A stretch of DNA of 56,327 bases from an uncultured Candidatus Saccharibacteria bacterium. Its GTDB lineage: Bacteria > Patescibacteriota > Minisyncoccia > Phycocordibacterales > UBA6899. The notes under the pieces are model-generated. The model saw only the letters and a list, made by a program, of their open reading frames with translations, was not told where the DNA came from and made no database searches. The translations under genes and the position numbers were made by a program. The stretch is from assembly GCA_964469335.1 (NCBI GenBank), contig CAYXYK010000005.1:1-56327 (forward strand), given 5' to 3'. Shown here piece by piece: positions 48,074-50,403 of this stretch (position 1 is the stretch's first letter; each line of letters begins with the position of its first letter).

Positions 48074-48136
48074 AGTTGCATCGTTGTCTGCAAAGACCTA
48101 TTATGACAAAAGCTCACTCCGGTGAGTTTTTGTTTT

Positions 48137-48313
48137 GCCCCCATAGTTTAATGGATAGGAATCAATCGAGACTCAAAATGTGGAACATTTTGCGATTGAT
48201 TCGACCGGAGCTATGCCGAGGTATTACGAGGCGCGAGGTGGGGTCGCAAGCACTTAGTAGATGAGAAGCTTTGCTTCGAATATACTTAGTGACTAGTGAC
48301 CAGCTCCGTCCTA
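48137..48313 (+). pseudogene. Interrupted 5' half-copy of tRNA-Arg
   Basis: GCCCCCATAGTTTAATGGATAG (48137-48158), ~142-nt structured insert, then CAGCTCCGTCCTA (48301-48313). Confidence 0.7.
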
Positions 48314-48338
48314 GTGAAATGCATAAGTACGAAAATTT

Positions 48339-48413
48339 GCCCCTATAGTTCAATGGATAGAACAGCTCCGTCCTAAGGAGTAGATGTAGGTTCGATTCCC
48401 GCTGGGGGCACCA
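48339..48413 (+). tRNA. tRNA-Arg(CCT)
   Basis: GCCCCTA/TGGGGGC acceptor, GCTCC-GTCCTAA-GGAGT anticodon arm, encoded CCA; G32 and one T-stem mismatch. Confidence 0.9.
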
Positions 48414-48843
48414 TATGAAATAACAGCCTTTTGGCTGTTATTTCATATGGTGCCCCAAACAAGCAGACTACTCTGCTTCGTGCGGGAATCGAAAGGGTTT
48501 TCATTATCGAGTCATCGAGATTGAAAACCACCCGCGGCGGTTGCCGAGATTCCCGCTGGGGGCACAAGTCAGACACAAAACCTTCCCTGCGGAAGGTTTT
48601 GTGCTACTTGTGAGCCGCAGCGATGTTTCGCCAGCAGGCGAAACCGCGAGGTGGGGTCGCGGAAATCCCAGCGCGACGGCGATGGGATTATCCGTGACCC
48701 ATACTCCCAATGCCATACAATCTCTTTCGCTGTAGGTACGTTTTCCAGAGAGTCTCTTCGCGGAAATCCCAACGCGACGGTGAGAAAGTTATCCGTGACC
48801 AAGGTGACCCACATACACCACCTGCGGCGGTAGCCGAGATTCC
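48414..48843. repeat. Nested repeat cluster downstream of tRNA-Arg
   Basis: Inverted tRNA 3' copy (48448-48493), direct copy GATTCCCGCTGGGGGCAC (48548-48565), repeat pairs 48658/48759 and 48527/48817. Confidence 0.85.
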
Positions 48844-48913
48844 TCTCACATTGCTTCTTCCCGCGTTGAATGTATGATATCCGCAGTCCATCGTTATTTG
48901 AAAGGGGATTCAC

Positions 48914-49855
48914 GTGACCCAAAAAAGACCAGGCCTGCCTGCGGTCAGGACACAAGTTGCGGCATTCGGAACCTCCGTTTTTGCGCCATCTCAGGATGTG
49001 TTTGGGGAGAATGCGAGCGAATGGGCGAGACGAGTCCTCCTTCGCGTTCCCACTGGATCCGCTGTCGAGATGGCACTCTCCCTCGTCAGCCTCGTCGGTG
49101 TTCGCTATGTCCGCGAATTGCTTGCGCAAGCGATATTGATGAAGAAAATCGGTCGATGTGATCTCGAACAACTGTACCTCTCGCAGCGTGACGAAGTATT
49201 TGCCGAACTTCCACTCGTCACGCTCGAATTCCTTGCGTCGATCAACTCTGACGGAGTGCAGATCTTCACCCTCGAAGACCTGCACCAGCTCGAAGCGAAG
49301 CGACATGGGGACGTCGATACCATGCGGCACGTACCGTACGAGCGCGATCTGTCCTATTTCCTGTTCGATGAAGAGCGCCGCAGGACGGTATCCACGGAGG
49401 TCCTTACGCGCTGGGGTGACAACCTTCAAGGCCGTGACATGAACATGCTTGCTGTCATCGATGTCGAGCTGATAAAGAGAAAGGTCCGTAGGCTTTCCCA
49501 GGGCGACATCGGACACCGACTGAAAGTCGCTGCGAAGCAGGACCCGAAAGGGAACGCTGTGCGGGTCTATCTCGAGCTCCTGTTCTCAAGGTCCGCGAGA
49601 AAAGGAAGCGTCCGGTCTGAGGTCGTCAGTGTGCTGCTTGAGATGCTGTCGCCCGCAGAGCGGACCGGAAAGATCGATTTCACAGCGGCAAGCGAAGTCT
49701 TCAAGTTCTATGTCAACAACCCGCTCATCCCGCTCGAAGATCGTGAATGGGTCATCAGGGAGATCACCCAGTATTGCAACGCATTCGCCAGTCATTACCT
49801 GCGGTTCGTCGAAGAGGGCGTCAACGAGAACCCTTTTCGTACTAGGCGGTCGTGA
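48914..49855 (+). CDS. Hypothetical helical protein
   Basis: GTG start with SD GAAAGGGG; long open frame; terminator-like hairpin at 49874-49906. Confidence 0.7.
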   Translation: MTQKRPGLPAVRTQVAAFGTSVFAPSQDVFGENASEWARRVLLRVPTGSAVEMALSLVSLVGVRYVRELLAQAILMKKIGRCDLEQLYLSQRDEVFAELPLVTLEFLASINSDGVQIFTLEDLHQLEAKRHGDVDTMRHVPYERDLSYFLFDEERRRTVSTEVLTRWGDNLQGRDMNMLAVIDVELIKRKVRRLSQGDIGHRLKVAAKQDPKGNAVRVYLELLFSRSARKGSVRSEVVSVLLEMLSPAERTGKIDFTAASEVFKFYVNNPLIPLEDREWVIREITQYCNAFASHYLRFVEEGVNENPFRTRRS

Positions 49856-49920
49856 CCTATCCATGTGCGCTCGGAACGGTGGCTTTGTGTCACCGTTCTT
49901 TTTTTTGCTATAATCATCAT

Positions 49921-50211
49921 ATGACCGAACAATTCGACTATGACAAGATCGATGAGATACTCGACCTTACTCGCGAGAACAATCGTATCTTGCGCACCAT
50001 GCACCGAAGAATGCTGTGGAGCCAGATCTTCACCTTCATATACTGGCTGGTCATCCTTGGTATCGCCGGTTGGTCATATTATTTCTTGCAGCCGTATTTG
50101 ACCAAGTATCTCAATAGTTATGAGACGATCATGAACGCCCTTGATACCATGGATCAGGGTGGAAAAGCCTTGCCGTCGAATCTCCAGGGACTTCTCGATA
50201 AGGTGAGGTAA
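49921..50211 (+). CDS. Hypothetical single-TM protein
   Basis: L.RENN.ILR.MHR...W..I...YW..I pattern; ATG 6 nt after TATAAT. Confidence 0.8.
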   Translation: MTEQFDYDKIDEILDLTRENNRILRTMHRRMLWSQIFTFIYWLVILGIAGWSYYFLQPYLTKYLNSYETIMNALDTMDQGGKALPSNLQGLLDKVR

Positions 50212-50251
50212 AAAAGAAAAATCGCACGTTCGGCATTACCTCAATAGGGTT

Positions 50252-50330
50252 GGTTCAAGTTGCAAACTCGCTGAGCTCGTAAGTACTTGCGACCCGACTC
50301 GCCGCCTCGAAGACTCGGCATGCTCCGTCT
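50252..50330 (-). repeat. GTGACC-family copy downstream of tRNA-Phe
   Basis: Minus strand AGACGGAGCATGCCGAG...GAGTCGGGTCGCAAGTACTTA...CTTGAACC. Confidence 0.75.
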
Positions 50331-50403
50331 TTCAACCCTTTGTAAACTTTCAGTTTTCATCCTCGGCACCAAAAGAAAAAATCCCATATGGGATTTTTTC
50401 TTT

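Follow-up and report, generated by a model that had tools for sequence, protein, structure and literature searches.

The stretch of DNA analysed here (the window, 56,327 nucleotides (nt) of contig CAYXYK010000005.1 from an uncultured Candidatus Saccharibacteria bacterium) carries a tRNA-Arg(CCT) gene with partial copies of itself on both sides. The pieces around this gene belong to a Patescibacteria-wide family of modules of ~85-155 nt, protein-less and strand-specific, which are located at the ends of tRNA and tmRNA genes. We consider it probable that the locus is a stack of such small non-autonomous insertion modules, gained and lost by recombination inside the segment that goes from the T loop to the 3′ end of the tRNA (called X below); that the modules are selfish, that they move through recombination within X and in which order the events took place is what we infer from the sequences. 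The first-pass annotation of this DNA had described a split 5′ copy, a fold-back and multiple 3′ copies of the tRNA, and had overlooked the genome-wide and phylum-wide family of structured modules. The genome comprises 1.28 Mb in 8 contigs, and several relatives with the same elements are named Candidatus Lloydbacteria. Related genomes are designated by G numbers and loci or contigs from other assemblies by L numbers.

The polymorphic unit behind tRNA-Arg(CCT)

The intact tRNA-Arg(CCT), with encoded CCA, occupies 48339-48413 of the forward strand (ARAGORN; Rfam tRNA, 58.5 bits). A direct 18-mer, GATTCCCGCTGGGGGCAC, is found at 48394-48411 and again at 48548-48565, with a spacing of 154 nt: a direct repeat of the tRNA 3′ segment flanks the inserted DNA, and the proximal gene is intact. 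The parts that follow the gene are the following.

48394-48547 (+): E1, the 154-nt polymorphic unit, from the first 18-mer to the end of module C (equivalently 48412-48565), defined by presence and absence among strains
48405-48456 (+): hairpin with perfect 24-bp arms; the same layout is found behind other tRNAs
48461-48478 (+): HP1, small hairpin splitting the antisense arm, recognised by its fold; homologues elsewhere have a CTGC-type loop and covarying stems
48482-48493 (+): antisense T arm GCGGGAATCGAA, exact complement of 48391-48402 (T loop and T-stem 3′ strand)
48494-48548 (+): type C module of 55 nt, made of the P2 hairpin, an invariant ACC and the P3 hairpin with a GTA loop (gapless 19-copy alignment)
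48548-48565 (+): distal direct copy of the tRNA 3′ end, without CCA, contiguous with the original flank and equal to the gene's own 3′ end in the contigs without E1
48563-48614 (+): second terminator-type hairpin (CACAAGT..ACACAAAACCTTCC CTGC GGAAGGTTTTGTG..ACTTGTG), an inverted repeat, also homologous to G010
48615-48699 (+): second type B module (nhmmer E 6e-10; fold -56 kcal/mol, z -6.8)
48657-48757 (+): 101-nt segment between 43-nt repeats, a second strain-level indel
48758-48800 (+): 3′ half of a further type B module (direct repeat; genome-internal homology)
48817-48850 (+): older type C module, 3′ end only, with a decayed copy of the tRNA tail (GATTCCTCTCAC) (direct repeat; homologous piece in G003)

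Repeat and fold analysis placed all the parts of the module family in E1 in their standard order (fold z -5.6). The unit is 154 nt long and non-coding, far from a kilobase-scale element with cargo genes. Its large hairpin, which had been described as perfect and as including the acceptor strand, has arms (48405-48428/48433-48456) that are 100% complementary; it takes in GGGGCACCA of the tRNA and is composed of the tRNA 3′ strand with CCA, an A/T-rich spacer, a terminator-like core (AACAGCC TTTT GGCTGTT) and the antisense acceptor TGGTGCCCC (48448-48456). The antisense T arm was also confirmed, and a hairpin follows it at 48496-48529. All the repeats listed in the first-pass annotation are present in the sequence, and three additional families of direct repeats were confirmed beyond the 18-mer (48527-48553/48817-48843, 93% identity; 48657-48699/48758-48800, 84%; 48232-48247/48645-48660, 100%). 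These repeats are far above chance, because the same parts recur behind other tRNAs in this genome and in its relatives. The terminator 2 and B pair (48563-48699), for instance, shares 85% identity with a unit behind tRNA-Glu (C6:64-159). In the predicted shape of E1, the antisense and sense arms would close a helix sharing the 3′ strand of the tRNA acceptor/T-stem stack, HP1 would be located where the D and anticodon arms would emerge, and the core would replace the T loop.

Conspecific contigs were collected by their identical 81-aa glutaredoxin. Nine were obtained, from different samples, with flanks 99.1-99.9% identical. The seven that span the site (L035-L039, L041, and L043) were all without exactly 154 nt and kept one 18-mer, so that their tRNA reads GGTTC, then GATTCCCGCTGGGGGCAC, then AAGT; L042 stops inside the 18-mer and L040 stops before it. 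The contigs without E1 come from the JGI samples 3300045354, 3300045353, 3300045330, 3300045345, 3300045347, 3300045350, and 3300045333, and the one that breaks off within the 18-mer from ENA ERZ4216102. E1 is therefore a discrete unit bounded by the 18-mer. The difference of 154 nt represents either a gain of E1 in the window or its precise loss in the sister strains. The 101 nt of 48657-48757 are missing from L037, L039, and L043. The nine contigs retain the upstream half-copy with its B module, as well as the modules behind tRNA-Gly(CCC) and tRNA-Phe. A tenth contig, L044, belongs to a sister species, with 89% identical flanks and the same Grx protein.

The arms, repeats, and hairpin of E1 are all perfect; its G003 homologue and the distal remnants in the window are decayed. 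By a rough estimate, made with no tool, the probability that ~70 arm and repeat sites of E1 stay perfect under neutrality is of the order of 1e-4 at the ~25% non-coding divergence between this genome and G003. This perfection argues against an old neutral relic, and E1 is either young or actively maintained. It could also be supposed that the assembly of this metagenome-derived genome produced E1, whose palindrome measures 52 nt, as a chimera or fold-back, considering that all the site-spanning conspecific contigs are without it and that no other public contig with E1-specific words was found. The collections searched may not include the window's own genome, though, and E1 is located in the middle of a contig of 62 kb, its antisense arm fits tRNA-Arg specifically, the order of its parts is the family standard in independent assemblies, and a decayed homologue is found at the same position of G003. 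An artefact is hardly credible on these grounds.

The first-pass annotation had taken the 18-nt repeat as the attL/attR signature of tRNA-targeting integration and had proposed repeated insertion cycles of a miniature element. The repeated small insertions at tRNA-Arg(CCT) were borne out, as a pile-up with one clean presence/absence unit among strains; the integrase signature was not, as there is no integrase in or near the locus, the length of the direct repeat varies among loci, and constant antisense copies are foreign to att sites. tRNA genes are well-known integration sites, and kilobase-long tyrosine-integrase elements might have entered the 3′ end of tRNA-Arg repeatedly and then been almost wholly deleted. 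The direct repeat whose proximal copy restores the gene would be expected of such scars, and the region downstream of the locus differs among relatives. Against them, the 154-nt unit is self-complete and its internal order is repeated behind many tRNAs in many genomes, and neither antisense copies nor conserved folded cores are att features. By Pfam, the open reading frames of the locus encode a glutaredoxin, a DUF2157 membrane protein, an Hsp20, a PrsW protease, and others without a match, with no recombinase domain and no integrase remnant among them; the genome has one Xer-like tyrosine recombinase, and module words were not found in IMG/VR viral contigs. We regard this origin as quite improbable.

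A family of folded modules behind tRNA genes

Sequences 85-91% identical to parts of the locus are found elsewhere in the genome, always adjoining a tRNA gene. Among the trailers of all the tRNAs, one order recurs many times: the tRNA, often a hairpin of the A-run/stem/T-run kind, the acceptor 3′ strand in reverse complement, HP1 (loop usually CTGC-type), the T-stem 3′ strand with the T loop, likewise in reverse complement and ending in TCGAA, a core of two hairpins, and GAWTC, which is prolonged to a varying extent as a direct copy of the gene's 3′ end. The cores are of two or three families. The A core consists of a long hairpin, GTAC, and a short hairpin with a YGTAR loop; the C core closely resembles A but has ACC and a GGTA loop; the B core consists of GGAGC, a hairpin, CGAGTCGGGGTCGC, a long hairpin, and GTGACC. 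A search of the whole genome with nhmmer gave 34 modules, 12 of type B and 22 of type A/C. Twenty-four of the 34 follow a tRNA or tmRNA on its own strand at a distance of at most 450 nt, and about 5 more are linked to one (behind a truncated tRNA at a contig start, upstream of the tmRNA, at a contig-edge tRNA-Ile, and in the pseudo-copy of the window). Modules also sit on both sides of the tmRNA gene (C1:345936-346326, minus strand), as they do at tRNA-Arg: one of type B lies shortly downstream (C1:345755-345827), and one of type A precedes the gene by 43 nt (C1:346369-346420).

Across the genome, the antisense arms specifically fit the tRNA of their own element. When the last 24 nt of each tRNA were reverse-complemented, 23 of 46 matched the gene's own trailer over at least 9 nt, versus 5.6% of the non-own pairs. 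Between loci the direct repeats range from ~5 to 26 nt, and the inverted arms are local tRNA copies, unfixed. The cores, meanwhile, are shared: the C core of the window is identical at 54 of 55 positions to one behind tRNA-Pro(CGG) of another species (G008), and is 91% identical to one behind tRNA-Cys of this genome, with which the T arm TTCGATTCCCGC is shared. A 21-mer of module C was found at 46 loci in assemblies of Lloydbacteria, Nomurabacteria, Paceibacterota, and other Patescibacteria; 37 of its 49 occurrences are at most 300 nt behind a tRNA, of at least 15 tRNA kinds. Rfam scans at gathering thresholds and at E<=10 and E<=0.1, over the locus and four orthologous loci, gave tRNA as the sole credible match. 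All the other matches at E<=10 were far below their gathering scores, and those of the hairpin to microRNA families were rejected as trivial long-hairpin matches. No description of a tRNA-tail module family was found in the literature searched.

These cores raise the question of whether in-place processes could have generated them. Replication template-switching at terminator palindromes, combined with unequal crossing-over, would make sense-antisense-sense copies of a tRNA end, and a similar mechanism has been proposed for the RtT repeats behind E. coli tyrT. The perfect palindrome extends through a non-functional spacer, other fold-back duplicates are present (e.g., the 48158-48203 hairpin and GGTTC..GAACC pairs in upstream copies), direct repeats bound the indels, and the two 5′ copies show signs of gene conversion in sister strains, all of which would agree with such an origin. 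It fails on the cores, which are near-identical (85-98%) behind tRNAs unrelated to one another and between species, on the conserved covarying folds and on the nesting of module types, and we take it to be very improbable.

The folds were evaluated on a gapless alignment of 19 distinct C cores from different tRNAs and species. In P2 (8 bp), 6 of the 8 pairs changed on both sides, with 98.7% of the cells paired; the covariation score was reached by none of 500 shuffles, and slid controls collapsed. The ACC between the hairpins and the GT of the P3 loop are invariant in C cores, and in the helices there are 13 G.T versus 3 A.C. Type B has a P3 base GGTCGC/GTGACC and a covarying upper stem, as read from alignment A1. 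In 29 of the 34 modules, the more stable fold belongs to the tRNA-sense strand and not to its complement (mean -4.0 kcal/mol, p 1.5e-7). Covariation, G.T excess, and strand bias together indicate that the selected form is the tRNA-sense single strand, RNA or DNA; the structure matters, for propagation or for an RNA function. A convergent pseudo-tRNA on the minus strand was discarded as a candidate, since the sense strand folds better in those 29 modules and the orientation is fixed relative to the tRNA.

It is possible, though on balance unlikely, that the modules are in the first place functional tRNA-linked RNAs, whose sense transcript would mimic the acceptor/T helix and act on the 3′ end of its own tRNA, the gain and loss of DNA being secondary. 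Possible roles would be control of precursor folding or processing, a decoy for tail-recognising enzymes or toxins, or a sponge. The covarying helices and invariant loop nucleotides would be expected of such RNAs, as would the strand-specific fold with G.U pairs on the tRNA-sense strand, the fixed orientation, the arms matching their own tRNA, the 21-mer conserved across candidate phyla, and the tRNA-Gly(CCC) and tRNA-Phe elements fixed in all conspecific contigs. E1 is dispensable, however, as it is carried by no site-spanning conspecific contig; half of the tRNAs are without a module, and the same tRNA has differing types or none in congeners. In addition, decayed and truncated copies accumulate, and a terminator-type hairpin is usually placed between tRNA and module. 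This reading and that of insertion modules can both hold.

The upstream half-copy and the orthologous loci

On the 5′ side, the first 24 nt of the tRNA and the three T's preceding them recur at 48134-48160 (48134-48158 versus 48336-48360, 92% over 25 nt; 48298-48313 versus 48360-48375, 94% over 16 nt). The split half-copy reported in the first-pass annotation was thus found, with an insert of 139 nt (48161-48299) rather than the ~142 nt given there, which splits tRNA positions 1-24 from 25-37. The region upstream of the intact gene is made of the following features.

48137-48160 (+): old tRNA-Arg 5′ part, positions 1-24, 21 of 24 identical to the intact gene
48158-48203 (+): 46-nt hairpin in the old 5′ half (fold -17.6 kcal/mol, z -4.5)
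48203-48301 (+): type B module nested in the 5′ half of the old gene: GGAGC, hairpin, CGAGGTGGGGTCGC, long hairpin, GTGACC (nhmmer E 5e-14)
48300-48313 (+): old tRNA-Arg positions 25-37 (CAGCTCCGTCCTA: anticodon stem 5′ strand plus loop), from the repeat comparison
48314-48338 (+): 25-nt spacer, probable remnant of a 5′-side element; ..TGCATAAGT.. resembles ..GTGCATAAAAGT.., the spacer end of A2-type upstream elements (G002 and others)

In the sister species contig L044, the intact tRNA begins exactly where the half-copy of the window starts, with the same flank before it and a module on neither side. By this comparison, the half-copy is identified as the 5′ half of the original gene at its original position, and not as a gene awaiting splicing. 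The upstream copy of the window is probably a 5′-side element that has lost its core and received the B module later. This B module (fold z -3.4) has the closing stem GGAGCT/AGCTCC, in which AGCTCC is the anticodon-stem strand of the tRNA, and is present also in G003 and in all 9 conspecific contigs. G003 retains the 46-nt hairpin despite four stem changes on both sides. A group I intron of the tRNA-Arg(CCU) kind was considered for the insert and rejected, because the insert lies after position 24, in a copy without positions 38-76, and gave no Intron_gpI match.

The pseudo 5′ copy of L035-L043 has T6 and C13, as does the intact gene, which lies 202 nt farther downstream. The copy in the window has T13 and, as in the outgroup, C6. 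Gene conversion may thus have taken place between the two 5′ copies. The tRNA-Arg(CCT) of L044 (L044:2294-2366; Logan SRR21621038) has the 5′ acceptor strand GCCCCCA of the window lineage together with the 3′ strand CGGGAGC, which would suit the gene of GCTCCCG type found in other congeners; two acceptor mismatches result, and the tRNA looks chimeric. The synteny between L044 and the window stops inside the tRNA, which suggests a possible recombination breakpoint within the gene.

The loci from grx to tRNA-Arg(CCT) were compared in 17 related genomes, as the first-pass annotation had proposed, and were found strongly divergent between relatives, not identical across distant ones. Upstream, nothing lies between the flank hairpin and the tRNA in nine genomes. 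G003 has the arrangement of the window at ~75% identity, with the tRNA-like parts nearly unchanged. Six genomes (G002, G009, G012 with two copies, G013, G014, and G022) have an upstream pseudo-tRNA of positions 1-40, after which come a hairpin and an A-like core (GCAAGACCTTTTGAG..CCAAAAGGTGTACWGCGCC..GGCG), decayed positions 41-62 with antisense GAATCGAACC, a spacer, and the intact gene. Downstream, the module behind tRNA-Arg(CCT) is of type C in the window and G027, A in G007, G009, and G019, and B in G002, G004, and G010; there is none in G005, G008, G013-G015, and G020-G022. Decayed pieces homologous to E1 were found in G003 and G010.

A mini-module (CCARWTTTT..GAAGTACTC..GTGGTG) is nested in C and A cores of relatives, with a variant in a B core. 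It measures ~55-65 nt and is located in hairpin loops of C/A cores in L053 (G015) and L014 (G008); a similar segment, outside the strict search pattern, is found in the B core of L026 (G004), and the mini-module is absent from the genome of the window. In L020 (G013:C7), the intact tRNA-Arg lies between the arms of a perfect 14-nt inverted repeat (TTTCCTGCAACAAC..GTTGTTGCAGGAAA), and 23 nt past it there is a different tRNA-Arg 3′ end (TTCGATTCCGGCCAGGGGCACCA), pairing with the 5′ strand GCCTCTG of the upstream pseudo-copy. An older gene appears to have been split there by DNA bearing a whole replacement tRNA.

Two features stand between the glutaredoxin gene and the half-copy.

48076-48104 (+): possible promoter (TTGCAT, 17 nt, TATTAT), read by eye, just past the glutaredoxin stop codon
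48108-48131 (+): A-run/stem/T-run hairpin (CTCAC TCCG GTGAG), at a grx-to-tRNA position conserved in all orthologous loci

The layout TTGC..N17..TATnAT is found 5′ of tRNA-Arg also in relatives, and the copy in the window is below the threshold of the promoter scan. The transcript of this putative promoter may begin at the terminator-like hairpin (48076-48131). On the other side, the genes at 48914-50400, between tRNA-Arg and tRNA-Phe, have no Pfam match and are unlike the small conserved membrane-protein gene found there in most congeners, and the orientation of tRNA-Phe is inverted relative to relatives. These observations point to a rearrangement or an island between the two tRNAs.

Proposed mechanism, related systems, and significance

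A complete unit consists of X in the sense orientation, frequently followed by a hairpin of terminator type, then X′, which is X in reverse complement and is usually split by HP1, and a core (A, B, or C) with two hairpins. The core is closed by X′ and X into a helix that copies the acceptor/T-stem helix of the tRNA. According to the mechanism that we propose, the gain of a unit would rebuild an intact tRNA beside it and push the old 3′ end and the older units downstream. The stacking expected from this is the order of the window: tRNA, pristine C-type E1, terminator 2 plus B, half B, and C tail. A mirror-image event on the 5′ side would have left the 5′ half of the original gene (48137-48160 plus 48300-48313) beside its original flank, and a B module would have landed in it later. 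We favour insertion modules because of the exact strain polymorphism, the pristine unit nearest the gene, the turnover of module types at one tRNA, the near-identical cores at unrelated tRNAs and in different species, the nesting, and the dispensability.

Several points weigh against insertion modules. The polymorphisms near the tRNA show the window with outgroup states and the nine other contigs with shared derived ones, and a mosaic farther off; these flanking changes do not polarise the 154-nt event. Precise slippage deletion between the 18-nt repeats around a palindrome could explain the same difference, mobility being unneeded. Strong covariation, invariant loop nucleotides (ACC and GTA), and strand asymmetry are equally expected of a functional RNA. 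Furthermore, the proposal leaves the antisense copy at a new tRNA without explanation. As for enzymes, none of the modules has a linked recombinase. Neither an IS110 DEDD recombinase (PF01548) nor a Y1 HUH transposase (PF01797, RAYT), for which control genomes gave matches, is present in the genome; the search for an integrase in trans that the first-pass annotation had suggested gave a single tyrosine recombinase, Xer-like (PF00589, C1:230989-231513), elsewhere in the genome and none at the locus. Four large serine recombinase genes are found in contig 1 (C1:131854-132291, 144386-144844, 162717-163157, and 404702-405139; open reading frames of 441-579 aa), and the only reverse transcriptase of the genome (C3:131576-132958, minus strand) distantly resembles retron enzymes (61 bits to the NCBIfam retron St85 family, well under the cut-off); neither the serine recombinases nor this enzyme is tied to the modules in this genome. 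Finally, free, circular, or phage-borne copies of the modules were absent from the contig collections searched, and E1-specific words from the JGI metagenome contigs. Two of the four serine recombinases lie at most 2 kb from tRNA genes (tRNA-His; tRNA-Arg GCG and tRNA-Ser TGA). An A-type module (C3:137065-137109) is located ~4 kb from the reverse transcriptase.

Taking the insertion modules one step further, they might be self-targeting mobile elements without a protein of their own: the folded RNA or DNA strand would mimic the acceptor/T-arm helix, the antisense arm split by HP1 would act as a programmable guide, and host enzymes would finish the insertion. The arm would pair with the T-loop-to-3′-end strand of the matching tRNA gene or precursor, with a tRNA-processing enzyme, the lone Xer-type recombinase, or the retron-like reverse transcriptase as candidate host enzymes. 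Retargeting to a new tRNA would occur through exchange of the arm, at which the near-identical C cores behind tRNA-Arg(CCT), tRNA-Cys (with the shared T arm), and tRNA-Pro(CGG) may hint. This proposal is speculative and, as stated, we hold it to be rather unlikely.

By comparison with the RtT repeats (rttR, RF00391, E. coli tyrT-tyrV), the modules are likewise non-coding units directly behind a tRNA, with a copy of its 3′ end, co-oriented, and of unknown function. RtT is instead confined to one enterobacterial locus in tandem units of ~178 nt, and is not known to have an antisense tail or a core shared behind many tRNAs. RtT repeats are mentioned in a bioRxiv preprint (10.1101/2024.07.17.603846). 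The Rfam search of the locus with RF00391 gave no match. Cis-mobilizable elements (CIMEs) and genomic islands at tRNA 3′ ends resemble the modules in the 3′-end direct repeat, the gene rebuilt by the proximal copy, the tandem accretion, and the strain variation, but they are kilobases long and integrase-derived, with a fixed core site and no antisense copy of the target; the modules are folded units of 85-155 nt behind about half of the tRNAs, and no cognate integrase was found. REP/BIME, REPIN, miniature inverted-repeat transposable elements (MITEs), and Correia repeats are also short, hairpin-rich, protein-less, multi-copy, and intergenic, often at gene ends, nested or in tandem. These elements have fixed terminal sequences and no target-specific arms, whereas the arms of the modules are copies of the neighbouring tRNA in both orientations; the fixed terminal inverted repeats and fixed-length target-site duplication of MITEs were not found, and REPINs need RAYT, which is absent here.

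The integration of CTX-phi as single-stranded DNA (XerCD, folded attP) may serve as a working analogy, in that inverted segments of a folded strand rebuild a target-like duplex; by this analogy a housekeeping tyrosine recombinase of the host, here the only one in the genome, would serve. CTX-phi, in contrast, is a phage genome that targets dif and not tRNA genes. Group II introns, with their exon- and intron-binding sites (EBS/IBS), and the IS110 bridge RNA share with the modules bipartite segments complementary to their own insertion site and a structured RNA between them; the modules differ in having no intron-encoded protein, no group I/II fold (Rfam), and no IS110 recombinase, and the tRNA is intact and unspliced. 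The locus lacks defining features of tRNA integrative elements, RtT, MITEs, REPINs, IS110 elements, and tRNA introns. What is new for this locus is the exact filled and empty alleles, the origin of the half-copy as the 5′ half of the gene, and the B module nested in the tRNA 5′ half.

The ultra-small Patescibacteria have streamlined genomes (~1 Mb), yet about half of the tRNA genes of this genome carry modules. The 154-nt strain polymorphism offers a testable handle, with defined filled and empty alleles in named public samples. If the modules are guide-programmed or are functional mimics of tRNA, they would represent a new way of choosing a target or of controlling tRNA. Were they selfish, they would be an unusual parasite of the most conserved genes of the cell, one that rebuilds the tRNA it strikes, and they would account for many of the att-like tRNA-end repeats, split pseudo-tRNAs, and contig breaks in such genomes.

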